Part shown: positions 8,567 through 51,717 of the stretch, piece by piece | Numbering within the stretch: the stretch's first letter is position 1 | How the letters are laid out: every line of letters begins with the position of its first letter | Assembly: GCA_963422645.2 (NCBI GenBank) | Contig: CAXXVO010000017.1 | Coordinates: 128,001-192,000 of the forward strand | Direction: 5' to 3' | From: Alphaproteobacteria bacterium | GTDB taxonomy: Bacteria > Pseudomonadota > Alphaproteobacteria > UBA828 | Length of the DNA stretch: 64,000 nucleotides | Notes under the pieces: model-generated | What the model was told of the DNA's origin: nothing | Seen by the model: only the letters and a program-made list of their open reading frames with translations | The model's database searches: none | Made by a program: the position numbers and the translations under genes

Positions 8567-8618
8567 ATGTTCGCAGGAACAACCAAGCCCACTGCAAGGG
8601 CGGTTCCTCTTGATTTTG

Positions 8619-10506
8619 GTAACTGCCCAGGTTCTTGCTGTGAAAATTCTCTGGGATTCGGCACAACGCTACCCACGCGACGCCCGTGTGCTCCTCTGGG
8701 GTCGCCGGGTTTCACAGCTCACGATGCCCCTCTTGCGGACTGCGACCGGTAAGCTACCCCGATGTGGCCCGAAGTCCGCCCGCGCGACGGGCACCGATTT
8801 TCATTCTATGGGGTGGTCCAGCACGGCGTCGACCATGATCGTTTATGAGAATGGCTCCGCTGTTGGAGAACCCGTGCCAGGTGAGCTTACGCGCACTTGA
8901 CGGTGGCGATGAGCCGATCCGATGGGCTGGTCAGGGCTTCGATGATATTCCAGCCCTGCTTTCTGGCGGTGGTGATGACGCTGCGCAGGATGGCGAAGTT
9001 CTCGGCCCCCTGCGCGGACCGGAAGCCCCCGGAGATCTTCTGGCGCAGCTTCATCATCCGAAGGTCGCGCTCGGCCTCGTTGTTCGTGAACCCGACCTCG
9101 AGGTCGATCAGGAACCGGAGCACCGCGCATTTGTGGTCGCGCAGCCTCAAGGCCAGATTGTGACCGATCCTTCGCTTCCGGCGCTTCTTCCTCTTGCCAG
9201 GCGAGAACGGTGGTTGGCTCTCGTGAAAGGCCAGCGCATCGGCGATGATCTCGTCGTATCGGCGCTCGATCAGCGCCACAAGCCTCGCCGGAACGGCGAT
9301 ATCCTTGTCCAGCGCGATGCGGGCGGCGCGATTGGCTCGGCGCAGGAGCTGCTGCATCCGCCGGGCCCAAGCCTCCCCTTCGATGTCCACCAGCGCCTGC
9401 AACTCCCGCAGGTGATGGGCGTTGCACAGGCCGTGCTCCACCCCTTCCATCGCGAAGTACGGCTTCCAGTGATCGTGCACGACGATGCCGGAGACACCCG
9501 AGAGCAGGGCGCCGCGCTTGCCGCTGACCCGGTACGCCGCCAGCAGCGGCGTGCAGATCACATGAAGCCACTGCGTCTGACCGCCGATCCGCAAGCCGGT
9601 CTCGTCCATGTGTTTCACCCGCGCCGTGCCCGCCGCCAGGTCCTGTATGTGCAAGGCCGCGTCCCGCAGCCGCTCGGCCGCCCTCTCGCTCATCGTCGCC
9701 AACGTCGCAGCCGTCACCGGCGCGCCGAAGAGCTCGGCCATCACCTGCGACAGCCGATCCTCCGGCAGGAAGTGAGCGTGCTGAAGGTAGACCGCCACCC
9801 CGGCAATGCGCGGGCCGTACTGCACCGGCGCCGACACCCCGTCGGGGAACGCCGCCCGGGTCACCGTCCCGCAATGCCCGCAGCACTTGGCATGCGCCCG
9901 GTGCTCGGTCACCTCCAGGGGGCTCGGCTCGGGCAGATCGAACACCTGGCGGGCGACGGGCGTTCCCGCCCTGGCCGCGTCCGAAAGCGGCGAACCGCAT
10001 CCCTTGCAGGAAGCCGGGACGTGATCCTTCACCCGATCCGGGTGATCGGCGCGGCGCAGCGTCTTGCCCTTGTGGCCGGGCTGGCCACCGGGCTTGCGGC
10101 CCGATTTGCCGCGCAGGCTTCGGGTTCGCCGCTTCGAATTCGGCTTCCTCAGCCCATCGCTCGAAGGCGGCTTGCCGCTGTTGCCGCTGTTGAGGCCGAG
10201 ACGGCGCTCCAACTCCTCGATGCGCTCGACGAGACGCGCGACTTGCTCTTCCAGCCGCGCGTTCTGCTGCCGAAGCCAGGCATTTTCCTCCCGAAGCCGG
10301 GCGTTCTCCTCCTCCAGGCGGGCGATCTTCTGCGCGGGCGTTTCGGGCGCTGCTCCCGTCGAAGGGCCGCGCGGCGACTCGGGATTGCTCATGTCGTTGT
10401 TGAGTCATTTCCCGAAATTCCCGTCAAGCCCTTTCCACCAACTCCGAACGAGAAACGCCTCAATCCACTGGCCCAAAATGACAAATCAGACGACCTGGGC
10501 AGTTAC
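8619..10506 (-). mobile_element. IS66-family element (single-ORF, ISBst12-like), intact, 1888 bp
   Basis: TIRs GTAACTGCCCAGGT / ACCTGGGCAGTTAC; 8-bp TSD TGATTTTG at 8611-8618 and 10507-10514. Confidence 0.95.
8887..10392 (-). CDS. IS66-family transposase
   Basis: N-terminal coiled coil, NSGNSGKPPSSD, GGQPGHKG, Zn finger, HMDETG, CNAHHLREL and TNNEAERDLR. Confidence 0.95.
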   Translation of the reverse strand: MSNPESPRGPSTGAAPETPAQKIARLEEENARLREENAWLRQQNARLEEQVARLVERIEELERRLGLNSGNSGKPPSSDGLRKPNSKRRTRSLRGKSGRKPGGQPGHKGKTLRRADHPDRVKDHVPASCKGCGSPLSDAARAGTPVARQVFDLPEPSPLEVTEHRAHAKCCGHCGTVTRAAFPDGVSAPVQYGPRIAGVAVYLQHAHFLPEDRLSQVMAELFGAPVTAATLATMSERAAERLRDAALHIQDLAAGTARVKHMDETGLRIGGQTQWLHVICTPLLAAYRVSGKRGALLSGVSGIVVHDHWKPYFAMEGVEHGLCNAHHLRELQALVDIEGEAWARRMQQLLRRANRAARIALDKDIAVPARLVALIERRYDEIIADALAFHESQPPFSPGKRKKRRKRRIGHNLALRLRDHKCAVLRFLIDLEVGFTNNEAERDLRMMKLRQKISGGFRSAQGAENFAILRSVITTARKQGWNIIEALTSPSDRLIATVKCA

Positions 10507-10636
10507 TGATTTTGGATGTGGAGGGAAGGGTTTCCAATAGCGATTCCCTTGAATCTTCATAAGAAATTCTGGGGTTTGCCTCTAAAGCGAGTGGTCGGAA
10601 GTGGCGCTGCGTTTGAGCCCGGCGAGAAAGGCGGCC

Positions 10637-10848
10637 TAGTCACGTGACTCTAAAGTTCGTGGCATAAGTTTTGTTCGACCCTGAGGCAGAAGCGCTTGAC
10701 GGCGGCGAGGATGTCGTCAGCGGACTTGGCCCACTTGAAGGGCTTGGGGTCTTCGTTGTGCTTATCGATGAAGGCCCGGATGTCGGCTTCGAGTTGGCGG
10801 GTCGAGCGGTGCACGCCGCGCTGCAGTTGCTTCCGCGTCAACTCGGCG
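10637..10848 (-). pseudogene. IS630-family transposase remnant, 3' part and terminus
   Basis: ELTRKQLQRGVHRSTRQLEADIRAFIDKHNEDPKPFKWAKSADDIL...; terminus ends at a TA; continues at 13521 across the inserted element. Confidence 0.85.
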
Positions 10849-11020
10849 TGTAGCCGGCCGAAAGTCTTTGCGAATCGCGGCCGGAAGTCTTTGCGAATGG
10901 CCTGGAAAATCGGCTGGTTTTCGGGGCTGAATCGGGCTGGAAAAACCGGCCTGTGCATGGGCCGTGAAGGAGCGCTGCGCGGGGGGTTCAGGGCCCGTGC
11001 ACGGGCGGTGCGTGAGGGTT

Positions 11021-11689
11021 TCAGGCGCGGTCGGGACCGGGGCGGGCGCCGGGGCGGCACGGGCGTTCGAGTTCGGCCTTCCACCATTCGGGGTCTTCGA
11101 CGGCGCGTTCTGCGGCGTCGTATCCGTCGTGACCGGTCCATCTTCCGGGGTCGGCGTCGGCGTACCATCGGCCTGCGCCGCGGTGTCGTTCGAGGGCGTC
11201 GTCGATGCGGGCGATCCCGTCCGCCGGGCGTCCCCGGCAGAAGCGCTCGAAGAAGGCGTTGAGGCGGCATCGGGGGCAGCGTCCGCAGGGCTCTGCCGCG
11301 ACGGTGCATCGCCAGGTGAGCGCCTCCAGCCCGGGCGGGAGCAGGGCCTGGAGCATGAAGCGCCCGGCGACGGGTCCGAAGGGGTCGTCCCGCGACGGCG
11401 GCCACTGCGCGCCGTCCTCCCAGCCGGGGAAGAAGGGGAGTTCCATGGGGACGGCGGTGCGCGCGCGGTAGGCCGGATGCCAGTACATGCGGTGCATGTC
11501 GTCGGCGGTGTCCCACGAGGTGATGCCGAGCATCACCCGGTCGGCGCGGTGCCGTTCGGCCTCGTCGGCGTGGGTTGCGTACCGGTCGAGGCCCCAGGGA
11601 CCGAAGGTGGGGTCGCAGACGCCCTCCCACCCTCTCCCGTCCCTGATCGGGTATCCGGCGCCGGCGTCGAGGTCGAGGCGCAGGGCCAC
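11021..11689 (-). CDS. Hypothetical protein with QueC-like C-terminal Zn motif (probably 5'-truncated)
   Basis: LTWRCTVAAEPCGRCPRCRL resembles the QueC TWSC-x(n)-CGxCxxC motif; no PP-loop SGGxDS visible. Confidence 0.45.
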   Translation of the reverse strand: MALRLDLDAGAGYPIRDGRGWEGVCDPTFGPWGLDRYATHADEAERHRADRVMLGITSWDTADDMHRMYWHPAYRARTAVPMELPFFPGWEDGAQWPPSRDDPFGPVAGRFMLQALLPPGLEALTWRCTVAAEPCGRCPRCRLNAFFERFCRGRPADGIARIDDALERHRGAGRWYADADPGRWTGHDGYDAAERAVEDPEWWKAELERPCRPGARPGPDRA

Positions 11690-11693
11690 GGCG

Positions 11694-12308
11694 CCCACGC
11701 CCGGAACCGTCCGCGTCCACAACGAGAGCGAGACATGGCAGGCGCTCGCCCCGGACCTCGGCGGCCGCGACCTCGACGCAACATCCCGCCTCTTCCGCAA
11801 CCACCTGCTCGGCGGCGCCGGCATGCCCGAGCACTGGTTCGGCGGCGGCGGCGACGTCAACCGCGCAACCGCCGCAGAGATGGGCGATCCCGCCTTCAAG
11901 ACCCTCAAGATGCGCCAGAGGCTGTGGACCGAGATCCTGCGCCGGGCCGCAGACTACGCCATCGCCCGCAGGCTCGACCCCTCCGGCGCATCATGGCCCG
12001 ATCCCGCAGACCCCGCCCTCGCCGTCTCCGTCTCCGTCGAATGGCCCGAGATGGTGGTCGCCGACGCCTCCCGACACGCCGCCGCGCTCGCCCAGACCGC
12101 AGGCGCCGCGGCGCTGGCCATCGAGCGCGGCCTGCTCTCGGACGCCACCGCGCTCCGCGTCATCGCCGCGCTCACCGGGCGCCTCGGCGTCGAGATCGAC
12201 GCCGACGCCGAACTCGAGGCGGCGCGCGAAGACGCCGCCGGACGGGCCGAAGAAGACGCCTTCCGCGAGCCCCCGCAGGACGAGGACGCCGACGACGGCG
12301 AGGCGTAG
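11694..12308 (+). pseudogene. Phage portal-like protein, C-terminal fragment
   Basis: PGTVRVHNESETW...GMPEHWFGGGGDVNRATAAEMGDP resembles portals of Mu-like prophages; lies directly upstream of the minor head gene. Confidence 0.6.
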
Positions 12309-12311
12309 CAC

Positions 12312-13250
12312 GTGGCTACCGACCGTCAGCGCGAGCGCAGGCTCAAGGGCGAGCGATCCCGCCGTGCCCGCGCCCTGCCCCGCATCCAGAAGGACACCGC
12401 CGCCGAGGTCGGCCGCATCCTCGGGCGCGCCGAGCGCGACATCCGGGCCACCCTCGCCGGCGCGCCCTCCGATTACCAGGCATGGGCGCTGCCATCCCTC
12501 CAGGCCTCCGTCCGGGACGCCCTCGACAGCCTCGGCGCAGACGCCGGGCAGGCCATGGCCGAGGGCGCAACCCGCGCCTGGGACGCCGGCATCGATACCG
12601 TGGACGCCCCCGTCAACGCCGCCATGCGCCTCGATGCCCCCGACTTCCGCATCGCCGCCGTCCTGCCCGAGGTCGACACCCGCCAGCTCCTCGCCATGCG
12701 ATCCTTCCTCACCGCCAAAATGAAGGACGTCTCCACGACGCTTGCCGAACGCGTCAATACCGAACTCGGCCTGACCATGATCGGAACCCGCAGCGTCGGC
12801 GAGACCACCGGCCGCGTCGCCGCCATCCTCAAGACCGGCGGCAGGTCCCGCGCCCTGACAATCGTGCGGACCGAGCTCGGCCGCGCATACTCCATGGCCG
12901 GACAGCAGCGCATGGAGCAGGCCGCCGGGATCCTGCCGGGGCTGAGGAAGCAGTGGCGACGCTCCGGAAAGCTCAGAAGCCGCATCGCCCACGACGCCGT
13001 CGACGGACAGACCAGGGAAGCCGCCAGGCCCTTCGACGTCGGCGGCGCCTCGCTCATGTACCCCCGCGATCCCGCCGGACCCGCCGCCGAGACGATCAAC
13101 TGCGGATGCCAGTCGCTGCCATGGATGGAAAGCTGGGAGGTCGAGAACCCCGGGCGAAAGCCGTTCTCCGACGAGGAGATCGCACGCGACCCGCGGCGCG
13201 CCGATCTCGAAGGGAAGGAGGCCGGCGCGGGGACAACGCCGGCATCGTAG
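12312..13250 (+). CDS. Phage head morphogenesis / minor head protein (Mu gpF / SPP1 gp7 family)
   Basis: RALTIVRTE, KQWRRSG...H...DGQ and LMYPRDP...INCGC motifs. Confidence 0.85.
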   Translation: MATDRQRERRLKGERSRRARALPRIQKDTAAEVGRILGRAERDIRATLAGAPSDYQAWALPSLQASVRDALDSLGADAGQAMAEGATRAWDAGIDTVDAPVNAAMRLDAPDFRIAAVLPEVDTRQLLAMRSFLTAKMKDVSTTLAERVNTELGLTMIGTRSVGETTGRVAAILKTGGRSRALTIVRTELGRAYSMAGQQRMEQAAGILPGLRKQWRRSGKLRSRIAHDAVDGQTREAARPFDVGGASLMYPRDPAGPAAETINCGCQSLPWMESWEVENPGRKPFSDEEIARDPRRADLEGKEAGAGTTPAS

Positions 13251-13520
13251 ACCGGGCGAGGCGAAGCACCGCGCCGCACCCCGATTTACCGGCGAATCCG
13301 CACCCCCGGAACCGCGCCGATTTACAGGCCTTTCAGCACCCCTGAAACGCCCCGAAAATCACCGTTTCCAGCCAATTCACGGCCCTTTCCGGGCCGGATT
13401 CGCAAAGACTTTCGTCCGGCCCGCCAGACCCCGGAAACGCCGCCAACCCCTTGACCGTCCGCCCTCTTCCGCCTTCTTCCCGGCATCTTCCGGATTCGCA
13501 ATGACTTTCGTCCCCCTACA

Positions 13521-13662
13521 CGGCGAACCAGCGCTCGACCTGATTGATCCACACTTGCCGATGACGGAGCCGGTGGCGACATCGAGGGCGGCGAATAGCG
13601 AAGTGGTGCCGTTGCGCTTGTAATCGTGGGTGCGCCGCTCGGGCGCGCCCGGCAGCATCGGC
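13521..13662 (-). pseudogene. IS630-family transposase remnant, internal part (internally deleted)
   Basis: [34 protein letters not shown] joined out of frame to [10 protein letters not shown]; the intervening catalytic segment is missing. Confidence 0.85.
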
Positions 13663-13828
13663 GTATGTCTGACTTGGCTGCTTGCGCCGGCCCGGCGGCG
13701 CGGCCCCTTTGCCAGGGTGTCCCGTCGCGCCGGGGCGCTTGCTCGCAAGGCGCGGCGCTGGACTCGGAACACGCAGCACAGGGAGAGCCGAAACCCGTGG
13801 CTCGTCAGCTTCGCTCGGGTTCGGAGCT

Positions 13829-14676
13829 TCACTTCATGCCCTGGAACCGATCGTCGTTGGTGGATAGCAGCCTTGCCCGATACTCCAGGATCGTCTCGAT
13901 GAGATATCTGTCCAGTTCCACGGTCAGCCCAAGGTTGTCTCGCTCCAGCGATCGGCGGGCAGACGGCGTCATCAGCGCGGTCCGGCAAGGCTCAACCGCC
14001 AAGACCGTCATCTCGGCCGCCTGATCTCCGAAAGCAGCCTCGGCGACCAATACGTCGCCGGGTCCGTACTCGTCCATTCGTGCCCCGGCATCTTCCTCGC
14101 GCGCCATGGCCCGGCCCTGGGTCAGAAACTGCAGGCCCTCCTGCTCCTCGCCTCGCACCACGATGGTATCGCCAGCCTCATACGCGCGACTCCGTAGCCA
14201 GGGCTTGAGCCGTTCCGTCAGGGCCTCGAAACGGGCCTGCCTCTCCACTTCGCGCAACGCGTGGTCGACGGAAAGACCGAACAAGGCGTCCCTCGCGTCG
14301 TCCGACGCATCTTGCAGCCGATCCCACTCGGCGATGACGAGGTCCTCGCAGCGCTCGAGGCCGCGGTCGAGGTCCTCTTCGAAGATCAGACTACGCCACT
14401 CGCCCTCGGGGAGGCCGCGCCGCAGGATCGAACGGACATGCTCCGCCACGGCGCTCAGGACAATGTGCGTCCCCTGGGCGCGCGCCGTCCGGACGGCGCG
14501 GAAAACGATATTCGCGGCCGAAACATCGAAGCCGGAGACCGCGGCGAAGTCCAGCAACAGGCACAGCGGGGCCGGGTCGGCACTGAGGGCTTGCTTGAGA
14601 CGATGCCCCATGGGGGAGGCGTTGCCGAAAATGATGTAACCACGCAGCCTGTAGGCGCGCACACGCTCGCCGTGGT
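13829..14676 (-). pseudogene. SulP-type transporter C-terminal STAS + cNMP-binding domains, 5' part removed at IS21
   Basis: AYRLRGYIIFGNA, LLDFAAVSGFDVSA and DLDRGLERCED (STAS), then a cNMP-binding domain; frame cut at the IS21 end. Confidence 0.75.
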
Positions 14677-14878
14677 TGTCAATCGGCTTTCAATACTGAC
14701 CCCCGATCGGCGTGCAAAATTGACCCCCCTGAGTGGCACGGCGGAGGTTGTCCCGGTAGCCAATAGGGGGGACCCGCGCGGCTTCGTGTGGCGCCCTGCG
14801 CTACGCGGAGCGAAGCCGCGTGGGGGGTCCCTGTTGGCCCACCGGGGCAACCGGGCCGCAAGGGAGGCCGGCGGCGGG

Positions 14879-15607
14879 TCAGGAGCGGTTCTTGAAGCGC
14901 CAGCTCTCGTTGCCGGTCTCGATGATCTCGCAATGATGGGTGAGGCGATCGAGCAGCGCTGTGGTCATCTTGGGGTCGCCGAAGACGGATGGCCATTCGC
15001 CGAAGGCGAGGTTTGTGGTGATGACGATCGAGGTGCGCTCGTAGAGCCGGCTCATCAGATGGAAGAGCAGCTGCCCACCGGCCTGGGCGAAGGGCAGGTA
15101 GCCGAGCTCGTCGAGGATGACGAAGTCGCGGCGGACGAGCTGGTCTGCAGTGCGGCCCTGGCGTCCGGCGCGAAGCTCGGCCTCGAGGAGGTTGACCAGG
15201 TCGACGACGTTGTAGCACCGGCCGCGCGCGCCCTTGCGGATGCAGGACCGCGCGATGGCGACGGCGAGATGGGTCTTGCCGGTACCGGTGCCGCCGACCA
15301 GCACGATGTTGCGTTTGCCCTCGAGGAAGCCGCCGCCGGCGAGCTCCTGGATCAGGGGCTCGTTGACCGGCGAGGCGGCGAAGTCGAAGTCGGCCAGCTC
15401 CTTGACCGTCGGCAGCTTGGCGGAGGCCATCTGGTACTTGATCGAGCGGGCCCTCTTGTCGGCGATCTCGACCTGCAGCAGCGTACCGATGATCTGTTGC
15501 ACCGGATGGCGGCGCTTGAGCCCGTCGGCAAGGATGTCGTCGTAAGCGGCGCGCATACCTGCGAGCTTCAGCTGGGTCATCATCTCCAGCACATCATGAC
15601 GCTCCAT
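14879..15607 (-). CDS. istB: IS21 helper ATPase IstB
   Basis: Walker [24 protein letters not shown] and ALLDRLTHH. Confidence 0.95.
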
Positions 15608-17108
15608 GACCGGCCTCCCTCAGGCTGTCGTAGCGCTGACAGTCGGCTACCGGCTTGTGGCGAAGCTGCAGGCCCTCGGGCGTCGGGATGATTGCCGGCG
15701 GTGCCGGCTGGCGCTGCCGGGCGAGGATGTTGAGCACCACGTCGGCGCTGCAGGCACCGCAGTCGAGCGTCTCGGCACAGGCCGCCTCAACCGCCTCCAG
15801 TCCGTCCTCCAGCACCGCCGCGAGCACCTTGACGAACTGCCGGTCGCCGTCGTCGTGGCCCGCGAGCCGGGTTCGCAGGCGGCCGAGCGCGTTGGGCAAC
15901 TGCCAGTCCTTGAAGGGCGCGCCATTGCGTAGCGCGCCGGGCTTCCGCGTCAGGATCGGCACGTAATGCCACGGATCGTAGACGAACCGGCCGCGCCCGA
16001 AGCTGCGGGGGTGCTCGGCAACGGTCTCGCCGTCCTGGCGGATGACGATCCGATCGGCATAGGCCCGCACGTCCACCGGCCGGCCGACGGCGCGGGCCGC
16101 GACGCTGTACTGGTTGTTGTCGAAGCGCACCAGACAGGTCTTCGAGACCGACACCTCGCTGGCATGGAAGCCGTCGAAGGGGCCGCGATACGCCATCAGG
16201 AAGGGCTGCTCCTCCTCGAACACCTGCCACACCGTCTTGCCCGGGATTGTCGGATGCGGATGCTTCTTGGCGTCCTCGATGCACCGATCCATCAGCCACT
16301 CGTTGATCTCGGCGTAGGAGCGGCCCCGCGGGATGGGCACGAACAGGCGGCCGCGAAGGTCACCCACCTGCTTCTCGACCTGCCCCTTCTCCCAGCCAGC
16401 CCCTGGCGTGCACGCCACAGGCTCCACCAGATGGTGCGAGCACAGCTCCTGGAAGCGGCGGTTGTAGTCCCGCTTCTTGCCCACGAAGATCGTGCTCACC
16501 GCCGTCTTCATGTTGTCGTAGATGCCCCGCCGGCAGACCCCGCCGAAGAAGCGGAAGGCACGCTCGTGCGCCTCGAAGACCATCTCCTGGCTCTCGCGGG
16601 GAAAGATCTGGACCAGATACATCCGGCTGTGGCACAGCCGCATGTGCGCCGCCTTCACCCTGGTCGTCGCGCCCGACAGACGCGCGTACTCGTGGCTCCA
16701 GTCGAACTGGTAGGCCTCGCCGGGATCGAAGATCAGCGGCACATAGGCCTGCGCCGGCGACAACAGCCGCCACCGGCGCCGCCAGGCCCTGGCATAGCGG
16801 CGAACCGCGTCATAGCCGCCCTTGTAGCCCAGCGACACAAGGTCTTCATGAATCCGCAGAAGAGACAGCCGATCCTTGCGTGCCTTCTTCTCGTTGGCCT
16901 TCAGCTGGCGCTCAAGCTCCTCCACCCACAGCCCAAGCTTCGGCATCGGCTGGATCTTGCGCTCGTAGCTGTGCGAGGTCGCATCGCCCCGCACCACCTT
17001 GCGTATCGTGTTCTTGGAAACCCTCAAATCCCGGGCGAGCTTCTTGATCGGAACGCCCTTCACCAGATGATCCCGACGGATCTTCGCGATCGTTTCCACA
17101 ACCAGCAT
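15594..17108 (-). CDS. istA: IS21 transposase IstA
   Basis: N-terminal [26 protein letters not shown] and [11 protein letters not shown]. Confidence 0.95.
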
Positions 17109-17377
17109 CTCCCCCACCACCCCGTCCGTCCAAACGACGAGGTGTGTTCATGGACACAAATCCAAGGGGGTCAATTTTGGACGCCGATCACCCCCAATAG
17201 GGGGTCACTTTTCCACGCTTAACAACAGTCCGACTCGCGCACGTGTCCCCGGCGCCTCGACGATCGGAGCTCGCACGTCGGGATCGCCGCCGCACGAGAC
17301 CGTCAGGTGGCCGCCACGAGCAAGAGGGGGCCGGTCGAGTGTCGCGGACGGGCTCCCGTCCGCATCCCCGCCTGCGC

Positions 17378-22160: not shown

Positions 22161-22315
22161 CGGTGTCGCACTGGCACGAAGACCTCGCCGCCCGTAACGA
22201 GGCCTTCTGCTGCCTGTGAGCGTGCGCCCAGCATTTGATGGTGCGGTTTTCGGATTATTTGATGTTCGTGATGCGGCGCTTGGTTGATCTGCGAGAGCGG
22301 TGAGTGGCCTGGCTT

Positions 22316-23185
22316 TCATCGAGACCGCAGGAGCATCTCGTTCCAGTCCTTGGCGTGTCGTGGGCGCAACCTTTTCACCCTTGGATCGTTGAGCACGAGA
22401 TGCTCGGCGGCAGTGTCGCCGGCGCTGTCTGCGTCGTAGGCACAGACGATGCGACGTGGCTTCCACTCCTTGATCCAGGGCGGGACCGAGCTGGCGATGC
22501 CGGCGGTTGAGGCGACGACGGCGCCGTTCTCGCGCGTCCCCTCGACGCGCAGGCTTCGTGCAGAGATGGCGTCGACGGCGCTCTCGGTGAGGATGACGAG
22601 GGCGGGCTGGTTTCGGTCGCAGTGGAGCCAGAAGCCGCCACGCGCCTTGCGCGATCCCGGGGCCATGCCCCTGAAGCGTTTTGTTCCGGGCTGCGGCGCG
22701 GTGCCGAGGATCTCGGCGCCGGTCGTGTGCCCGCTGGCGTTTCGGCAGATGAAGACGGCGTTGATCCTGTCATCGGCGTAGAGGAGGCCTCGGCCGTGGC
22801 AGGCTTCGAGCACGTCGGTGCCGATAGCGCGTTGGCGGATGAGGGCGTCCCGGACCCTGGGCCAGGCGCGGGGACTGGGCCTTGGCAGCCGCAGGCGTCG
22901 CGGGGCGGCTGGGATGGTGGTGATCTCCCTCCGCCCCTCATGGCTTCCGAGGAAGCGGAGGGCTTCCGGGAAGCGGCATCCCGTCGCATGGATGACGAGG
23001 TCGATGGCGCCACCCCCTCCCGTGCCGCGCAGGTGATCGAAGAACTTCTCGCCGTTGATGCTGATGACCGAGCCCCCGCGCTTGAAGCGCGCCCGGTCGG
23101 TCGGGTCTCTGCGGTAGCCGAGGGCGGCGGCGACCCGGTCGAGGGGGATGTTGCGGCAGGTGGCCAGGGGATCGCCGCCGCTCAT
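22316..23185 (-). CDS. DUF3991/TOPRIM primase-like protein
   Basis: GGGGAIDLV primase N-terminal motif; TOPRIM motifs ILTESAVDA and CAYDADSAGD. Confidence 0.8.
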   Translation of the reverse strand: MSGGDPLATCRNIPLDRVAAALGYRRDPTDRARFKRGGSVISINGEKFFDHLRGTGGGGAIDLVIHATGCRFPEALRFLGSHEGRREITTIPAAPRRLRLPRPSPRAWPRVRDALIRQRAIGTDVLEACHGRGLLYADDRINAVFICRNASGHTTGAEILGTAPQPGTKRFRGMAPGSRKARGGFWLHCDRNQPALVILTESAVDAISARSLRVEGTRENGAVVASTAGIASSVPPWIKEWKPRRIVCAYDADSAGDTAAEHLVLNDPRVKRLRPRHAKDWNEMLLRSR

Positions 23186-23226
23186 TGCCGGGTCCCGGCG
23201 AAGGTCTGCTTGGAAGGGAGGCTGAC

Positions 23227-23287
23227 GGCGTTCCCGTTCCTGTACCCTTCAACGCTTAAGAGTTCCGGGAACGGGAACGGGAACGCC
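23227..23287. repeat. 14-bp perfect inverted repeat with tandem GGGAAC hexamers
   Basis: GGCGTTCCCGTTCC (23227-23240) / GGAACGGGAACGCC (23274-23287). Confidence 0.8.
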
Positions 23288-24286
23288 TCATCCCGCACTT
23301 CCGTTGATGGCGGCAGGGGATTGCGGCTCCCGGTGCGCCTCGGCGGCTGCGAGGCGATAGCCACCCCTGGGCGCCCGTTCGATGCGCCCCTCCCTGGTGA
23401 GGCTCTCGATGGCGGCAACGACGGTGGCGTTGCGGGCAGCGGCGCGTGAGCGGATCTGGGCTTTCGAGAGCGGCTTTTCGGCCTGCTCGATCGCCTTGAA
23501 GACGCGCTGCTCGACGGTGGCGGGCTCGTGCCTGTCTTCATCTGCCGCGTCCTGGTGCAGACGGAAGGCCGGCCCATGTCCGCCGTCGACGAGTTCCAGC
23601 TCGATGTCGTTGAGGCCCCGGGCGTCGCGCTGCTCGACCGTCATGACGATCTTCTTGTCGCGCCGGCGCAGGTACAGATTTGAGTCACCCCAAGCGTGCA
23701 GCTCGCTGCTCCCGCGCAGGGCCTGCCCCGGCCGGGTGCCGCCGCTCTTGCGGGCGTGGTGGACGAGGAGGACGGCGGTTTCGAAGCGGCGCTGCAGTTC
23801 GCGCAGGAAGCCGAGGATGGGGGCGATCTCTGCGACGGCGTTCTCGTCGACGCTGTGCAGGCGGACCAGGGGATCGAGGATCAGGAGGCGCGGTTCGATG
23901 CGCTCCACGGTCTGCTGCAGGCGTTGACGGTCGCCGGGCCGGTCGAGACGCAGGGTGGGCACGTCGATGACGGCGATGTCGAGTTCGTCGAAGGGGGTGG
24001 CGGCGGCGCGGGCGATCCCCTGCAGACGCTTGCGCACCCTGTGGCCGGCGTCCTCGGCGGCGAAGAGCAGCACGGTGCCGCTTGCGCTGGGGCGGTAGTG
24101 GCGCAGGCATGGGACGCCGGTGGCCACGGCGACGGCGAGATCGAGCGCGAGCAGGGATTTGCCGCACTTGGGCTCGCCGCCGACGATGCCCACGGCCTGC
24201 TCGGCCCACAGCGTGTCCACCATCCACTGTTGCGCCCGGGGGCGATCCTCGAGCTGCATCGGCGCCCGTGTCGGGAAGCCCTTCAC
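23288..24286 (-). CDS. RepA-like (AAA_25, RecA/DnaB-fold) helicase/ATPase
   Basis: Walker A GGEPKCGKS, FAAED, ILDPL, LVHHARK and LRGSS; GTG start overlaps the ExeA stop. Confidence 0.85.
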   Translation of the reverse strand: MKGFPTRAPMQLEDRPRAQQWMVDTLWAEQAVGIVGGEPKCGKSLLALDLAVAVATGVPCLRHYRPSASGTVLLFAAEDAGHRVRKRLQGIARAAATPFDELDIAVIDVPTLRLDRPGDRQRLQQTVERIEPRLLILDPLVRLHSVDENAVAEIAPILGFLRELQRRFETAVLLVHHARKSGGTRPGQALRGSSELHAWGDSNLYLRRRDKKIVMTVEQRDARGLNDIELELVDGGHGPAFRLHQDAADEDRHEPATVEQRVFKAIEQAEKPLSKAQIRSRAAARNATVVAAIESLTREGRIERAPRGGYRLAAAEAHREPQSPAAINGSAG

Positions 24287-24987
24287 CGCCGTGCCCTCTT
24301 CGGCTTGGCGGGCTCGCCCAGGATCTCCATGAAGAGCTTCTCGTCGAGAACCTCGCGGTTCTTCTCGGCGCCGGCGGCGAGCAGCATGTCGCCCATGACG
24401 GTAAGCGCCCTGGGGTTGCCGCCGGCGTGGGTGACCAGGGTGTCCTTGAGCTCTGCGCTCATGAGGCCCGGATTGCCGGCCTGCTCGACCAGATGGTCGA
24501 GCAGGGCCGCGAGGTCGCCGGCGTCTGCCTGGGTCATGACCAGGCGCTGGCGCAGGCGCGAGGCGATGGGCTGCAAGTCGGGCTGGCGGAGCCTGTCGAT
24601 CAGGCGGCTGTCGCCGGCGAAGACGACCGAGAGGATGGCGCGCGAGTCGAAGTCGGTGGACGCCAGCAGGCGGATCTCGGAGATCACCGAGGGCAGCAGC
24701 TCCTGGGCCTCGTCGATGAGCACCACGGGCCGCATGCGGGTGTCGTCGACATGGGTGAGCCATCGCTCGCGCAGGTTTTTGAAGCTGGCCCAGCGGTTGT
24801 TGTACATCAGGTCGACGCCGAACATCCCGCCGATCTCGCGGTAGAAGTCGGACAGCCTGGAAGAGGGGTGGGTGATGGCACAGACCCTGAGCCCGTCCGA
24901 GCGGCCGAGGCGGTCGGCGAGCACGCGCAACGCCACGCTCTTTCCGGTGCCGGGCTCGCCGGCGATCAACGCGAAGCCGCCCTGGCT
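24283..24987 (-). pseudogene. ExeA/TniB-like AAA+ ATPase, 5' end replaced by IS sequence
   Basis: FALIAGEPGTGKS, VLIDEAQ, PIASRL and AGGNPR; N-terminus fused to a truncated transposase. Confidence 0.8.
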
Positions 24988-26199
24988 GAGCTCCGGCTCG
25001 TCGGCGCCTGCCAGCGCCTGGCAAGGGCGAGCTGCCACGCCCGCACGCCGGCCTCGTCGTCGGCGATGAGAGCGATCTTGCGGCGCAGCGTCTTGACCTC
25101 GGGGCAGCGATCGAGGCCGAGAATGGCGCCCCATTCGCCCGGCGCCTGGTAGCGCAGGCTCTCGGGGTTGCGCACCCGCGCCAAGGTCATGAAGGCCAGG
25201 AAGAGCAGGATCGTAGGCAAGCCGTAATAGCCCTTCGGCAGCAATGGCAGGAGACCGGTCTCGGAGAGAAGACCTTCCTTCAGCAGGGCCGGCAGGGCGG
25301 CGAGCACGCCGCCGAAGCGGACACCGCGGGCGGCGGCGGCGAACTGCGGTTCGACCGGCCCCGCCTGTCCACAACTGGCCAGAACCCGAGCCGGAACATC
25401 GCAAGTCGCACGCCCCATCGGCGCCTGCCGGTCCCGCCGATCGCGCGCGCTGCGATCCGTTTGCGGCTGCGCTTCCAGCCCCGGCGCCGTCTCCGGCCCC
25501 GGGGCACCGGTACTCTCTTCATCGACACGGCCTTCAGGAGCCGCACCCGCGTCAGGCGGCGCAGCCAGCGCTGAGCGTCCGGGCTCCCCATCCGCCTCCG
25601 TGTTGCCGATCAGTCCCTGACGGCGCCACTTGTTGACCGATGGCGCTGACACGCCGAGAACCCGGGCCGCCGCAGAGCCGCTCAGGCCCGATGCCAGCAA
25701 CGCCGTCGCCTTCTCCGCCAACTCCGGAGTGAACACCGACGGCCCGCGACCGCGCCGGGGCTTCATGAACCCCGCTTCGCCCTCGGCCAGGTAGCGCCGT
25801 CGTGCGCGCTGCACCGTCGCGCGCGAGACAGCGAAAGCGTCAGCCAGTTCCTGCGGCGAGACCGCGCTGATCGCCGCGAGGCGGCCGATCCGCAAGAGCA
25901 TGGCCGTGCGGTCATCGGCGGCGTGGCTGTCAAAGGGAATGAGGTTGGAAAAGTAGGTGAAGGTGTCGTCCGAGATCAGGACGGCGAAGCAGCTGTTGCC
26001 GATCGAGACCGCCTCTGGAGGGCACATTGGGAGGGTACTGGGCATGGTTGAGACCGTGCAATTGGTATCAAATTATACTATCAGACCTCGGGCGCGACAC
26101 CCAGCGAAAAACCGCCTGAAACAACCGAAATGTATCAGAATTCAAGGAGTTCCCGGCACGCTGCCCAGAACAGCCAGCATCACGAGGTCAGGAAGTCTG
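24988..26199 (-). mobile_element. Truncated copy of the unclassified IS at 45616-48127 (left end and 5' half of transposase)
   Basis: Near-identical to 45616-~46826 in reverse complement; same CAGACTTCCTGACCTC end; homology stops at GAGCTC 24988-24993. Confidence 0.92.
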
Positions 26200-26309
26200 A
26201 TATTTTGACAGGAAAGAGAAAGAACGATGAGGAAACAGGAAATGGCAACCGAGTCCGCCGAGGTCATATCCCTGCGCCCCCGGGGCGGCGCAAAGGCTTC
26301 CGAGCAAAA

Positions 26310-28077
26310 CAGTCATGGTCCCCGCGGTTCTGAGCCACCCCGTGGCATGAAACAGGAGCGGTTCGGCTGACGTTTTCCTTGCGCTTGCACCCATTTGCCG
26401 TGTCAGGATGGGTATTGGCGGAGGTGGGGACGTGTGAGCGTCGTTATATCGGTGACGTAGTTCCCGATGACAAAACTGCTTCCGGCGGCCGGCTCCGCAC
26501 CCCGTATTGTACCCGGCCCGTGGCCGTGGACGCGCGGCAAATTGCACCGCACCCGCTCGTCGGATGCGTGTTCTTCCGACCGCTGTCCCCGCCTCCACCG
26601 TGGCGATGCCACGGCGTGATCGTACGCCGCCGTGGCGAGAGCGCAAATGAGGAGGAAGGCGATGAAGACGGAAGGCTTGCACGTCGTCCGGCCGCGCGCG
26701 GCGGGTCTGGACGTGCACAAGATGGAGATCACCGCGACGGTTCGCCTCTGTGAGGGCGAGGGTGAGCCGGTGGTGGAGACGCGCTGCTTCGGCACGCTGC
26801 CGAGCGGTCTGGAGGAGATGGTCGCGTGGCTGACCGGTCACGGCGTCGAGGCTGCGGTGATGGAAGGGACCGGGGTCTACTGGCAGGCGCCCTTCGCGGC
26901 CCTGGAGGCGGCCGGGCTCGAGGCGATCCTGGTGCATGCGCGTCAGGTGAAGCAGTTGAAGGGGCGCAAGACCGACGTGGCGGACAGCGTGTGGCTGGCC
27001 TGCGTGTGCCAGTTCGGGCTCTGCACGCCTTCCCACGTTCCGCCTGAGCCGTTCCGGGAGCTGCGCGCACTGAGCCGCCAGCGCCGCGTCCTGGTCAGGC
27101 AGCGCTCCGCCGTGCGCAACCGCGTGCAGAAGATCATCGACCGCGCCGGTGCGCGCATCGGCGGCATCCTCTCCGACGTCTTCGGCGTCAACGGCCGGAA
27201 GATCCTCGACGGCCTGGCGCAGGGGACGGCGCGCGAGGTCATCCTCGCCTCGCTCACCAGCCACGTTGCGAACAAGCTGGAGGGGCTCGGCGAGGCGCTC
27301 ACCCTGAGCCTGGGCGACAACGACCGCTTCATGCTCAACGACCTGCTGGAGGAGCATGACGCGCTTGAGGCGCGCATCGCGTCCTACACCAGGAAGATCG
27401 ACGGGCAGATGACACCGTGGGAGGAGCAGCTCCGTCTGCTGACCACCATCCCCGGCATCGACCGCACCGCCGCCTCGACCATCCTCATCGAGATCGGCCC
27501 CGACATCGGCGTGTTCGCCTCCAAGGAGCACTTCGCCGCCTGGGCCGGGCTCTGCCCCGGCAACAACGAGAGCGGGGGCAAGCGCCGCAACGCACGCACC
27601 CGCATGGGCTCCAAGACCCTGCGCGCCTGCCTCGTCGAGTGTGCCCACGGCGCGGCCCGAACCAAGGGGTGCCAGTTCGAGGCTCATCACCGCGCCCTCG
27701 CCGCCCGGCGCGGCTACAAGCGCGCCATCGTCGCCGGCGCTCACAAGATGCTGCGCATCATCTATGTGGTGCTCAAGACCGGCAGGCCCTACTACGACCG
27801 CACGGCCGACTACGACGCTCTGATGGTCAAGCGCAACGCTCCTCGGTGGATCCGCATGCTCCGCCGCTACGGCTACATCGAGCCCGTAGGCGCGGAACTC
27901 AAGGCCGCCTGAGCGGCCCGCATCTCGTCAGCCGGCTACGCGGGACCGCTTCGGACCACATCGGGGAAGTCCACCGCTCGTCTCCGCCGCGCCGACCCTG
28001 GCGGTCTCAGCCAACGCCGTGACCTCGGGGTTGGAGCGTCACCGCGCGTCCCTCGCCAGAATCTGTTTCACGGCAAA
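26310..28077 (+). mobile_element. IS110-family element with ~350 bp non-coding left end
   Basis: No TIR or classical TSD; boundaries defined by the restored HTH frame, with a shared AAA core at both junctions. Confidence 0.85.
26662..27912 (+). CDS. IS110-family DEDD recombinase/transposase
   Basis: AGLDVHK, VMEGTGVYW, RKTDVADS, TIPGI and WAGLCPGNNESGGK. Confidence 0.95.
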   Translation: MKTEGLHVVRPRAAGLDVHKMEITATVRLCEGEGEPVVETRCFGTLPSGLEEMVAWLTGHGVEAAVMEGTGVYWQAPFAALEAAGLEAILVHARQVKQLKGRKTDVADSVWLACVCQFGLCTPSHVPPEPFRELRALSRQRRVLVRQRSAVRNRVQKIIDRAGARIGGILSDVFGVNGRKILDGLAQGTAREVILASLTSHVANKLEGLGEALTLSLGDNDRFMLNDLLEEHDALEARIASYTRKIDGQMTPWEEQLRLLTTIPGIDRTAASTILIEIGPDIGVFASKEHFAAWAGLCPGNNESGGKRRNARTRMGSKTLRACLVECAHGAARTKGCQFEAHHRALAARRGYKRAIVAGAHKMLRIIYVVLKTGRPYYDRTADYDALMVKRNAPRWIRMLRRYGYIEPVGAELKAA

Positions 28078-28606
28078 GTGGGGCAAAGCCGTCATGGATC
28101 TAGGCTTCTGCATTGTGCCCTCCCTGCTGCTTCGGGCTCAGGCGAGATTGAGGCTGAGTCCGACTCAGCTGGCGGTGTTGATGCACCTGGCCGATTATTG
28201 GTGGGACGTAGAGCGCAAGCCATGGCCCAAGAAGCAGACGCTCGGCGATCGCCTAAACCTGAGCGCCCGGCAAGTGCAGCGCCATATCGCCCAGCTTGAG
28301 GAAATGGGATACGTCAAGCGAATCGAACGCACAGCCCCCCACAAGGGCAAGCTCAGCAACGAATACGACCTTAGCGGCCTCGTGCAGCGGCTCCAGGAGA
28401 TCGAGCCAGAATTCCGAAGAGTCGAGGAGGAAAACAAAAGGCGTCGTCGGGAAGTGGCTCGCCCAGGTTTCCGTCGGCGACCAGTTGAGGCCCCTGGCTA
28501 GGGCTTCACCCTAGACTGAGGACCCTGTACGCCAAGATCACAGCCCTGAATGTTTGTTGGCAGACCGACATGTCGGGGAGATGTTTCCAGGGTCCGAGGG
28601 CTTCAT

Positions 28607-44851: not shown

Positions 44852-45615
44852 GCCGCCCTGCACCCCAATGGCATTCATTTGGCGCGAAGATTGTTCCGGG
44901 GTTTTTTTGGTGGTGTCGTAACGAGTTGGTAACTGCCCAGGTTCTTGCTGTGAAAATTCTCTGGGATTCGGCACAACGCTACCCACGCGACGCCCGTGTG
45001 CTCCTCTGGGGTCGCCGGGTTTCACAGCTCACGATGCCCCTCTTGCGGACTGCGACCGGTAAGCTACCCCGATGTGGCCCGAAGTCCGCCCGCGCGACGG
45101 GCACCGATTTTCATTCTATGGGGTGGTCCAGCACGGCGTCGACCATGATCGTTTATGAGAATGGCTCCGCTGTTGGAGAACCCGTGCCAGGTGAGCTTAC
45201 GCGCACTTGACGGTGGCGATGAGCCGATCCGATGGGCTGGTCAGGGCTTCGATGATATTCCAGCCCTGCTTTCTGGCGGTGGTGATGACGCTGCGCAGGA
45301 TGGCGAAGTTCTCGGCCCCCTGCGCGGACCGGAAGCCCCCGGAGATCTTCTGGCGCAGCTTCATCATCCGAAGGTCGCGCTCGGCCTCGTTGTTCGTGAA
45401 CCCGACCTCGAGGTCGATCAGGAACCGGAGCACCGCGCATTTGTGGTCGCGCAGCCTCAAGGCCAGATTGTGACCGATCCTTCGCTTCCGGCGCTTCTTC
45501 CTCTTGCCAGGCGAGAACGGTGGTTGGCTCTCGTGAAAGGCCAGCGCATCGGCGATGATCTCGTCGTATCGGCGCTCGATCAGCGCCACAAGCCTCGCCG
45601 GAACGGCGATATCCT

Positions 45616-48127
45616 CAGACTTCCTGACCTCGTGATGCTGGCTGTTCTGGGCAGCGTGCCGGGAACTCCTTGAATTCTGATACATTTCGGTTGTTTCAGG
45701 CGGTTTTTCGCTGGGTGTCGCGCCCGAGGTCTGATATTATAATTTGATACCAATTGCACGGTCTCAACCATGCCCAGTACCCTCCCAATGTGCCCTCCAG
45801 AGGCGGTCTCGATCGGCAACAGCTGCTTCGCCGTCCTGATCTCGGACGACACCTTCACCTACTTTTCCAACCTCATTCCCTTTGACAGCCACGCCGCCGA
45901 TGACCGCACGGCCATGCTCTTGCGGATCGGCCGCCTCGCGGCGATCAGCGCGGTCTCGCCGCAGGAACTGGCTGACGCTTTCGCTGTCTCGCGCGCGACG
46001 GTGCAGCGCGCACGACGGCGCTACCTGGCCGAGGGCGAAGCGGGGTTCATGAAGCCCCGGCGCGGTCGCGGGCCGTCGGTGTTCACTCCGGAGTTGGCGG
46101 AGAAGGCGACGGCGTTGCTGGCATCGGGCCTGAGCGGCTCTGCGGCGGCCCGGGTTCTCGGCGTGTCAGCGCCATCGGTCAACAAGTGGCGCCGTCAGGG
46201 ACTGATCGGCAACACGGAGGCGGATGGGGAGCCCGGACGCTCAGCGCTGGCTGCGCCGCCTGACGCGGGTGCGGCTCCTGAAGGCCGTGTCGATGAAGAG
46301 AGTACCGGTGCCCCGGGGCCGGAGACGGCGCCGGGGCTGGAAGCGCAGCCGCAAACGGATCGCAGCGCGCGCGATCGGCGGGACCGGCAGGCGCCGATGG
46401 GGCGTGCGACTTGCGATGTTCCGGCTCGGGTTCTGGCCAGTTGTGGACAGGCGGGGCCGGTCGAACCGCAGTTCGCCGCCGCCGCCCGCGGTGTCCGCTT
46501 CGGCGGCGTGCTCGCCGCCCTGCCGGCCCTGCTGAAGGAAGGTCTTCTCTCCGAGACCGGTCTCCTGCCATTGCTGCCGAAGGGCTATTACGGCTTGCCT
46601 ACGATCCTGCTCTTCCTGGCCTTCATGACCTTGGCGCGGGTGCGCAACCCCGAGAGCCTGCGCTACCAGGCGCCGGGCGAATGGGGCGCCATTCTCGGCC
46701 TCGATCGCTGCCCCGAGGTCAAGACGCTGCGCCGCAAGATCGCTCTCATCGCCGACGACGAGGCCGGCGTGCGGGCGTGGCAGCTCGCCCTTGCCAGGCG
46801 CTGGCAAGGCCGACGAGCCGGAGCTCTGGGCGACGCTGGCCATCGACGGGCACGTCAAGGTCTACTCCGGCCGCAAGGGGCGCTTGCCCAAGCACTTCGT
46901 CTCGCGCGAGAAGCTGTGCCTGCCGGCGAGCGCCAGCTACTGGATCAACGCTCTGGGCGGCAAGCCGCTGCTCTGTCTGCACAAGCCGCTGGACCCGAAG
47001 ATGGTCGCGGCCATCGAAGCCGACGTGGTGCCGGCGCTGCAGGAGCTTGGGATCGTTGGCGCCGGGGCGCCGGACCTGACCGCCGAGCATCCCGGCCAGC
47101 CGGCGCTCACCCTGGTCTTCGACCGCGAGGGCTGGAGCCCGGATCTGTTCCGCCGGCTGGCGAGGCGCGGCGTCGCCTGCCTGACCTGGCACAAGAACTT
47201 CAGGGGCGAGGACTGGCCGGCCGAGGACTTCGGCGCGATGACCGTTCCCATTCACGGACCGGCGGCGGACGGCAGCGCCACCATGCGGCTGGCTGAGAAG
47301 CCGGTGACGTTGCCGAACGGCTTCAGGGTGCGCCAGATCCGCCGCCTGCTCGACAACGGCCGTCAGGTGCCGCTGATCACCACCGATCCGCACAAGCCGA
47401 TGGCTGAGGTTGCGGGCGCCATGTTCTCGCGCTGGTCGCAGGAGAACTTCTTCAAGTACATGCGTGACGAGTTCAATCTCGACGCCCTGCCGACCCACGA
47501 GCTCGAGCCTCTCGATCCCGCCGCCATGGTCGTCAACCCGCTGCGGCGGGCCTATGACAAGGCAATCCATCGCCTCGACCGCCAGCTTGGCCGCCTGCGC
47601 AACCGCATCGCCGACACGGCCCGGAAGAAGCAGCCGACGGCGGAACTCAGGAGGGAAGTCAGGGACCTCCAGGATGTCCGCGACATCGTCAGGGCCAGCC
47701 GCAGGGAGACGCCCAAGCACTGCCGGGCCGGCGACCTCGACGAAGCCGAGCAGCTCGATGCCTTGCCCGCGCGCGAGCGCCTCCTCCTCGACGTCATCCG
47801 GATGATCGCCTACCGCGCCGAAACCCGCATGATGCTTCCCGTCATGCAGGCGCAGGGCCACAAGCCCCATCCCCGGAAACTGCTTCAAGCGCTGCTCACC
47901 GCCGATGCCGACATCCTGCCGGATCCTGGCAATGGCCTCCTGCGGGTCCACATTCTTGGCCTCGCAAACGACGCCTGCGACCGTTGGATCGATGCGGTTC
48001 TGAGCGACCTGAACGCCACCGAAACGGTCTTCCCCGGCACCCGTCTGCGCATAGTCTACGACATCGACGGGGCCTCGGAATCCGCGCGGCTCGTGTCACC
48101 TAAAATCAGCAGAGGTCAGGAAGTCTG
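45616..48127 (+). mobile_element. Unclassified DDE IS (large HTH-containing transposase, ISNCY-like), 2512 bp
   Basis: TIRs CAGACTTCCTGACCTC / GAGGTCAGGAAGTCTG; TSD ATCCT (or TCC if the flanking T/A belong to the TIR). Confidence 0.9.
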
Positions 48128-48128
48128 A
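45770..48128 (+). pseudogene. Transposase (~785 aa if corrected) with +1 frameshift at ~46806
   Basis: Two N-terminal HTHs, then AIDGH, VFDREG and RWSQENFFK (DDE) in the +1 frame; stop codon formed at the element end (RGQEV*). Confidence 0.85.
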
Positions 48129-51662: not shown

Positions 51663-51717
51663 ACACCTGAACGACAGAAACGCACGCAACCGACAGCGCA
51701 AGAACACGACTCCTTAA

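Follow-up and report, generated by a model that had tools for sequence, protein, structure and literature searches.

A 2.7-kb stub with Mu-type ends is probably a gutted transposable prophage in an alphaproteobacterial genome with many such ends

Introduction

A 64,000-nt stretch of an alphaproteobacterial genome (assembly GCA_963422645.2, contig CAXXVO010000017.1, positions 128,001 to 192,000; here the window) contains at 10849-13520 a 2,672 bp element with termini TGTAG...CTACA, which carries phage head genes and no transposase. The locus raises the question of whether such an element is the residue of a prophage that collapsed in place or a unit moved by a helper transposable phage, both of which had been offered in a preliminary description made from the sequence alone. 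We consider it probable that the element is a gutted prophage, formed of the two end arms of a KS10-type Mu-like transposable phage whose middle was lost after insertion, in a genome infected repeatedly and recently by such phages. Coordinates are positions within the window unless a contig is named, G000 being this genome.

Results

The element interrupts a gene that was already broken and is bounded by the following features.

10650..10848, minus strand: 3' part of the interrupted, previously broken IS630-like transposase gene (target), from frame restoration and paralog alignment
10844..10848, plus strand: left copy of the 5-bp target duplication CGGCG, matching the right copy exactly
10849..10898, plus strand: tail-side end, Mu R-like, with a TG terminus and two transposase-binding-like sites 23 bp apart; one of 40 such ends in the genome
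13375..13520, minus strand: gpF-side end, Mu L-like, with a CA terminus, sites 96 bp apart and a degenerate third site; one of 44 such ends
13521..13525, plus strand: right copy of the target duplication CGGCG, matching the left copy exactly
13526..13660 (outer boundary approximate), minus strand: 5' part of the target with its own internal deletion near 13552, from frame and paralog alignment

A 16-bp site is present as two tandem copies at the left end (10860-10875 and 10883-10898) and as two inverted copies at the right end (13494-13509 and 13398-13413). A degenerate site at 13375-13390, 23 bp past the second right-hand site, matches at 9/16 letters by eye, and a third site is clear at neither end. 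The ends of phage Mu each have three MuA sites, spaced differently at the two ends and with a spacer between L1 and L2 (PMC3145075); because of this resemblance the 96-bp-spaced end may be regarded as L-like and the tandem end as R-like, the sites being predicted to bind transposase. Excision of the element restores the target reading frame, and seven target paralogs (83-89% identity) align straight across the excision joint. The TG..CA ends, exact duplication, asymmetric sites and clean rejoining of the target frame reported in the preliminary description were therefore all confirmed, whereas its IS630 label was not, the 65-amino acid (aa) target piece matching no transposase family in a profile scan.

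Between the ends lie one whole gene and two gene remnants.

11021..11686, minus strand: 3' remnant of a QueC-like gene encoding the last 221 of 298 aa, start and PP-loop lost and C-terminal cysteine cluster kept, by comparison with a full-length copy
11682..11686, plus strand: deletion junction, a 5-bp microhomology AGGGC present in both parental arms; unique in the genome
11682..12308, plus strand: 3' remnant of a portal gene that keeps residues 271-476 of 476 and lacks a start of its own (phrog_10963, E 1.4e-24; full-length copy elsewhere in the genome)
12312..13250, plus strand: intact gpF-like (Mu F) minor head gene, 312 aa (phrog_2468, E 2e-31)

The element thus consists of an 838 bp tail-side arm and a 1,839 bp gpF-side arm joined at the common AGGGC, with no insertion sequence (IS) at the 11682-11686 junction. 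Long open reading frames (ORFs) at 11021-11908 and 11487-12308 are chimeras that cross this junction into the antisense strand of the opposite arm. The gpF-like protein also matches PF04233, at an E value of 2.2e-5 that is below the curated cut-off. No MuA transposase or MuB ATPase gene is present inside the element, nor any integrase, replicon or regulator, and a scan of 10600-13800, including the region upstream of gpF, found no sigma-70-type promoter. The portal fragment and whole gpF-like gene agree with what had been described, but the QueC-like ORF is not intact and lacks its N-terminal 77 residues including the GGGIDS PP-loop (ATP-binding loop). In the full-length parental protein an SGGxDS-type N-terminal loop and the C-terminal cysteine cluster are both present and a QueC fold was modelled (pLDDT 84; best PDB match QueC at a modest E of 3.3e-5, TM 0.40-0.57). 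The family, located at the tail-side phage end (L013:722-1603, minus strand; homologs P0001-P0021), has no Pfam or NCBIfam match and may represent a candidate DNA- or protein-modifying anti-defence gene.

The ends of the element recur throughout the 5.9 Mb assembly (23 contigs, completeness 99.6%, contamination 8.5%), which contains 86 Mu-type ends: 40 tandem (28 SA, 12 SB), 44 spaced (24 LA, 20 LB) and 2 unclassified. These matches to a 27-nt end pattern are far beyond chance, since the reversed control gave none. In 48 related genomes the same pattern gave 0-1 matches per genome, although it was derived from the ends of this genome and would miss divergent families in relatives. Ends face each other within 60 kb in 26 pairings, 20 of which are flanked by an exact 5-bp duplication; no two of these 20 pairs are equally long (893-22,672 bp), and they include every combination of the two tail-side with the two gpF-side end types (9, 6, 3 and 2 pairs). 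The remaining 46/86 ends are orphans without a duplication-matched partner, giving 43-66 insertions in the genome when the 20 intact pairs are added to these 46. Duplications that match between orphan ends were set aside as evidence of partnership; five were found, but 11 of ~1,820 non-partner pairings also match, which is near chance. Target 5-mers fit the Mu consensus NYSRN (PMC12486242) at 37/86 ends against a 19.5% background (p about 6e-7), and the third base is C or G in 83/86; the element's own CGGCG fits the consensus only partly. Single ends with the same core motif were also observed in two other genomes of the genus (G006:C30:8585 and G010:C234:1490), the former adjoining tail genes whose products look by eye like contractile-tail baseplate proteins.

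Against this background the 2,672-bp form is present only once. A 60-mer and a 24-mer spanning its junction each occur once in 5.9 Mb, the other copies run on beyond the junction position on either arm, and neither a conserved size nor a conserved gene set was found across copies and genomes. The possibility raised earlier, that a 2.67-kb unit had been copied to other sites with different duplications, is not borne out by this single junction and the 20 different lengths.

Longer copies reveal the layout from which the two arms derive. Their gpF-side arm has the order GemA, Mor-like activator, lysis, gp27/TerS, TerL, portal, gpF, end, and their tail-side arm the order J-type fibre, tail-fibre gene, QueC-like gene, end; transcription runs outward in both arms, and the Mu-type marker genes of the family (gp27/TerS, GemA, Mor-like activator, gpF and portal) are found in these copies. 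Genes for a repressor, a Dam methylase, a protease and major head and neck proteins are found in addition in interior relics. The portal belongs to phrog_10963 in one gpF-side arm type and to phrog_113 in the other. A split layout with gpF first has been described for phage KS10 (PMC2628397) and two divergent arms are the B3 organisation (PMC8705779); the relic family shares this KS10/B3-type organisation, with gpF-portal-terminase at one end and the tail at the other. The presence of portal and gpF sequence in the element is thus explained by position, because these are terminal genes of the parent phage. KS10 resembles the relics in having a MuF-like gene first, followed by portal, TerL, TerS, lysis, transposition genes and a second head module, with the tail at the other end; it differs in being a complete 37.6-kb phage discussed alongside contractile-tailed Mu-like phages (PMC2628397), whereas in the relics the tail end is occupied by genes for a J-type central tail fibre and a QueC-like protein, and only 2.7 kb is left of the present copy.

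The viral record G041 (IMGVR_UViG_3300029651_000002; 43,635 bp, 95% complete), whose portal and gpF are 55% and 45% identical to those of the relics, represents this split layout in complete form: gpF is its last gene, a MuB-like gene and Gam lie in the middle together with a 592-aa transposase (phrog_310, E 4e-80), and it also encodes GemA and Mor. The parent was probably about 40 kb in size, with gpF as the last gene of a long late arm. Neither G041 nor a second record, GenBank PP438414.1 (portal 52.5% identical), is close enough to be the parent; no match was made between their ends and those of the relics, and the gene order of PP438414.1 differs as deposited. G041 has a Dam methylase at the position where the relics have the QueC-like gene. 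Repressor-like genes, Dam methylase and head genes are kept in interior relics at G000:C16:160077-171112 and L001:11776-12342, and such repressor-bearing relics could still confer immunity to some phage variants.

No full-length prophage with the same ends and MuA/MuB, which the preliminary description had proposed looking for, was found in the genome. The best matches to phrog_310 and phrog_296 (E 4e-35 and 6e-20) belong to a separate 5.2-kb transposon, termed here transposon X, followed by weaker IS-type genes; phrog_310 matches were characterised one by one only down to E 1e-17, and among the weaker ones a block at E 1.6e-9 falls on IS21 copies. Transposases and ATPases of three complete relatives gave only weak matches at the level of transposon X and one fragment, and no intact MuA or MuB was found in this 23-contig assembly, from which an unassembled prophage could escape. 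The fragment, a frameshifted 109-aa 5' MuA-like piece cut by IS21 at G000:C10:193957-194280, is the only trace of a phage transposase found. Pfam models PF09299, PF02914 and PF02316 gave no match, but the controls were silent too and PF09299 missed the real transposase of G041, so these were not used as evidence. Transposon X was rejected as a source of cognate transposase, having its own TGAGCG..CGCTCA ends and many copies away from phage ends. Among 44 genomes of the family no match to the G041 transposase was obtained at E 1e-20, an insensitive search since one of the family (G061) carries a distant transposase, and phrog_310 at E 1e-30 had no match in G012, G028 or G063. The end patterns were not found in the viral or metagenome contigs scanned, in scans that may omit near-identical records; with regard to packaging in helper particles, their lack in the viral contigs is weak evidence. 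An apparently complete Mu-ordered transposable prophage with a 676-aa transposase was observed in the same family on a 43.5-kb contig (G061:C21; L057, L058), its TerL being 64% identical to the type-A TerL of the present genome.

Phage arms make up 2.6% of the genome, and approximately 45 of the 86 stop at a resident transposon (29 at IS21, 16 at transposon X, motif-based). Almost every copy of the two transposons is 99.4-100% identical to the others of its kind, and target duplications are seldom preserved around IS21, indicating that IS21 and transposon X recently deleted and rearranged DNA in this lineage. When 84 arm junctions were tested, one genuine junction was common to two loci, position 198 of the gpF-side arm joined to IS21; a third locus has the opposite IS21 end there, and the two sharing loci differ in their other arm. 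Two other repeated junction matches were discounted, one reflecting the duplication of a contig and the other a wrongly placed arm end. Of the type-A arms, 13/24 are shorter than the ~1,209 bp required to hold gpF, and an exponential estimate, rough because arm lengths are bounded by the references used, suggests that arms rarely reach the transposase position. Similar gutted relics are present in G028 (two, with their own junction), G012, G015 and G016; in G063 an arm of 83-87% identity is broken by an IS. CRISPR self-targeting was rejected as a driver of deletion, none of the 15 spacers in two arrays matching the arms or fetched loci; these short arrays lie at G000:C7:274631-279284 and C16:198239-200277, with cas1 on C7 in two pieces.

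The arms are also mosaic. Distinct haplotypes account for 12/13 and 18/20 of those compared, and four-gamete conflicts increase with distance, from 65/411 near to 517/1024 far and from 5/32 to 102/195. The tail-side arm of the element is identical to that of a copy at C8:583393 (0/833 differences), yet the other arm of that copy differs at 30/913 sites; another pair of tail-side arms is 99.97% identical over 5.8 kb. In type-A portal and TerL the ratio of non-synonymous to synonymous polymorphism (pN/pS) is 0.25 and 0.14, with 7 synonymous versus 0 non-synonymous differences, and because they are mostly synonymous these differences appear to have arisen in working phages.

Discussion

The data are best explained by a Mu-like transposable phage of roughly 40 kb with a KS10-type split layout, which would have inserted by MuA-type transposition with duplication of 5 bp and then have lost its whole middle between two AGGGC microhomologies. 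The remaining stub would be a natural counterpart of mini-Mu(LR), dead unless a matching transposase arrives. By this account the genome would have gone through the same events 43-66 times. The copies derive from many recombinant phage genotypes, which suggests repeated infection by a recombining phage population. Each prophage would have been disarmed by IS-linked or microhomology deletions, the ends persisting because deletions reaching further would remove host DNA. Of the two origins first put forward, collapse of a prophage is thus supported by the unique microhomology junction, the terminal gene order of the parent and the 20 different lengths. The Mu-type ends and missing transposase on which a mobilised satellite had been postulated do stand, but the satellite or unit itself does not, given the single-copy junction and lack of a conserved unit; mobilisation by a helper is possible in principle.

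Several observations weigh against this explanation, beginning with the order of events. Reads were represented by four of nine listed runs, compared as contigs, and one of the four (X1) has a joint from 10843 to 13521 that skips exactly the element and one duplication, with flanking contigs identical to this genome; the joint has 28 letters on its short side and could stem from a close target paralog, as paralogs in this genome are 83-89% identical. If it represents an orthologous empty allele, then the insertion is very young and yet already reduced to ~6% of a 43-kb parent (~94% deleted). Every end appears undamaged, with one haplotype in SB and 4-7 in each of the other types, and the IS-free junction could predate insertion. 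No strain with a longer prophage at the CGGCG site was seen; a relative with a full-length prophage there, which the preliminary description held would mark an in-place remnant, was likewise not obtained. Among the contigs listed from the four runs, which leave 891 pieces besides, none bridges the junction at 11686. As to serial infection, the synonymous bias is not general: pN/pS is 0.48/0.60 for type-A gpF and 0.95/0.80 for type-B gpF (reference probably frameshifted), and type-B portal has 2 synonymous versus 13 non-synonymous differences. Gene conversion among resident copies could also produce mosaics within an arm type.

The probable empty allele, intact ends and IS-free junction leave room for deletion before insertion. 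A mini-genome could have been made during lytic growth or in another cell, copied by helper MuA/MuB, packaged together with host DNA and inserted as a 2.67-kb unit without function of its own. The apparent youth of the insertion (private substitutions number 1 in the first 900 bp of one arm and 0 in the first 735 bp of the other) would suit this order, as would the finding that trans-complementation works for mini-Mu(LR) units that retain the ends alone (PMC3145075). We nevertheless regard it as unlikely, since no two of the 20 two-ended elements are alike in length or structure, only 1/84 junctions recurs, no resident helper was found in the genome and the end patterns were missing from the scanned viral and metagenome contigs, with the reservation on near-identical records given above; in addition, Mu transposition is stimulated >100-fold by an internal enhancer (PMC3145075), an equivalent of which might be missing from the element. 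By extension, the whole genome might act as a sink for natural mini-Mu elements, gutted phage genomes with perfect ends that phages of the same kind copy and package on infecting the population and that insert as ready-made short units, of which the 2.67-kb element would be one, a proposal we find rather improbable.

It is very improbable that the copies go back to one or two founder prophages that multiplied in a single surviving cell lineage through a burst of replicative transposition and then diverged by gene conversion and decay. Transposition within surviving lysogens has been documented for DMS3 (PMC11406979), and the arms shared between sites, such as that at C8:583393 and the 5.8-kb pair, would fit; the copy sharing its tail-side arm with the element nevertheless diverges in the other arm, and the pairing of both gpF-side types (phrog_10963 and phrog_113) with both tail-side types under exact duplications is hard to produce by conversion in place. 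Mu polylysogens are only rarely isolated (PMC11406979). Such a burst would moreover concern the origin of the copies, the element still being a decayed stub.

We find it scarcely credible that the element is a true transposable-phage satellite in which gpF and part of the portal serve to disturb or divert the capsid assembly of a helper. In its favour, gpF is intact, G028 holds a similar portal-piece-plus-gpF stub, and expression of the portal C-terminus from the chimeric ORF 11487-12308 is conceivable. Against it, any stub retains the terminal genes of its parent, many copies cut gpF, size and gene set vary among copies, and sigma-70-type promoter, integrase, replicon and regulator were not found in the element; the stub in G028, moreover, is joined at a junction of its own and lies inside a longer relic of that genome.

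The closest known systems include Mu ends and mini-Mu(LR) (PMC3145075, PMC10052514), with which the element shares two ends of differently spaced sites kept around an internal deletion, a spacer separating the first two left-end sites, the lack of a transposase and a 5-bp duplication with NYSRN bias in the set. It differs in being natural rather than engineered, in having its own site sequence and in having two clear sites per end plus one degenerate; Mu itself has its repressor at the left end, where the relics have gpF. By this analogy the element would work like mini-Mu(LR) only if cognate MuA arrived. Satellites and hitchers (P4, PICI, cf-PICI, PLE, PICMI and MITEs; PMC11389934) are similarly non-autonomous, and the element could, like MITEs, be moved by a helper through DNA motifs alone; defective prophages have been considered possible proto-hitchers (PMC11389934). 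Compared with the gene sets that define satellites, the element lacks integrase, replication and regulatory genes of its own; it is neither a conserved unit nor present in a second copy, and the stub shows no trace of selection. We class it as derived from a known type of prophage and, on the features examined, as belonging neither to a mobilised family nor to the satellites.

As a single prophage remnant the element is ordinary; less ordinary is a genome with 86 ends from 43-66 insertions in which no intact copy was found. No description of a comparable load of Mu-type ends was encountered in the titles and abstract openings surveyed, where coverage of the subscription literature is thin, so that absence in print is not established. 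The set amounts to a natural deletion series from which terminal gene order, target preference and a recombining phage population can be read in one host genome, and it allows asking whether defective transposable prophages become hitchers. Should the stubs prove able to move in trans, laboratory mini-Mu would have an equivalent in nature, through which genes could be transferred and genomes rearranged; and if the genome does act as a sink for ready-made mini-Mu elements, a phage hitcher of the transposon type could arise by reduction and carry host DNA from cell to cell.

Additional observations

Transposon X (5.2 kb, ends TGAGCG..CGCTCA) is present in the window at ~22216-24986 (G000:C18:150216-152986) and in full in the L006 3.1-8.3 kb region (G000:C8:807.7-812.9 kb). 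It encodes a 205-aa protein of unknown function, a 516-aa IS481/Mu-related DDE transposase, an AAA ATPase, an AAA_25 helicase and a Toprim/DUF3991 protein, a primase-helicase pair of its own being unusual for a transposon; 42 pieces >250 bp are present in the genome. The IS load is extreme, with 94 near-full IS66 and 68 near-full IS21 copies, the latter reusing few target sites with either end. Approximately one third of the window is multi-copy DNA, and IS regions lie at 8612-10514, 14668-17240, 24988-28081 and 44926-51759.

Genes resembling gp27/DUF3486 occur in 1-15 copies in 17/20 genomes of the genus (L052-L055; G000:C10:199536, C13:74972, C13:180324, C7:18573 and C7:2174). Those inspected stand alone among host genes, and gp27-family matches in relatives are mostly stand-alone rather than prophage (5/9 examined closely enough to say); the gene is possibly domesticated or independently mobile. 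A 28-kb contig, G000:C1 (L007, L008), bears a divergent phage end (17642) and gpF pieces ~74% identical, together with integrase, HipA, HicAB-like, subtilase and DksA-like genes, and parts of it are repeated at contig ends.

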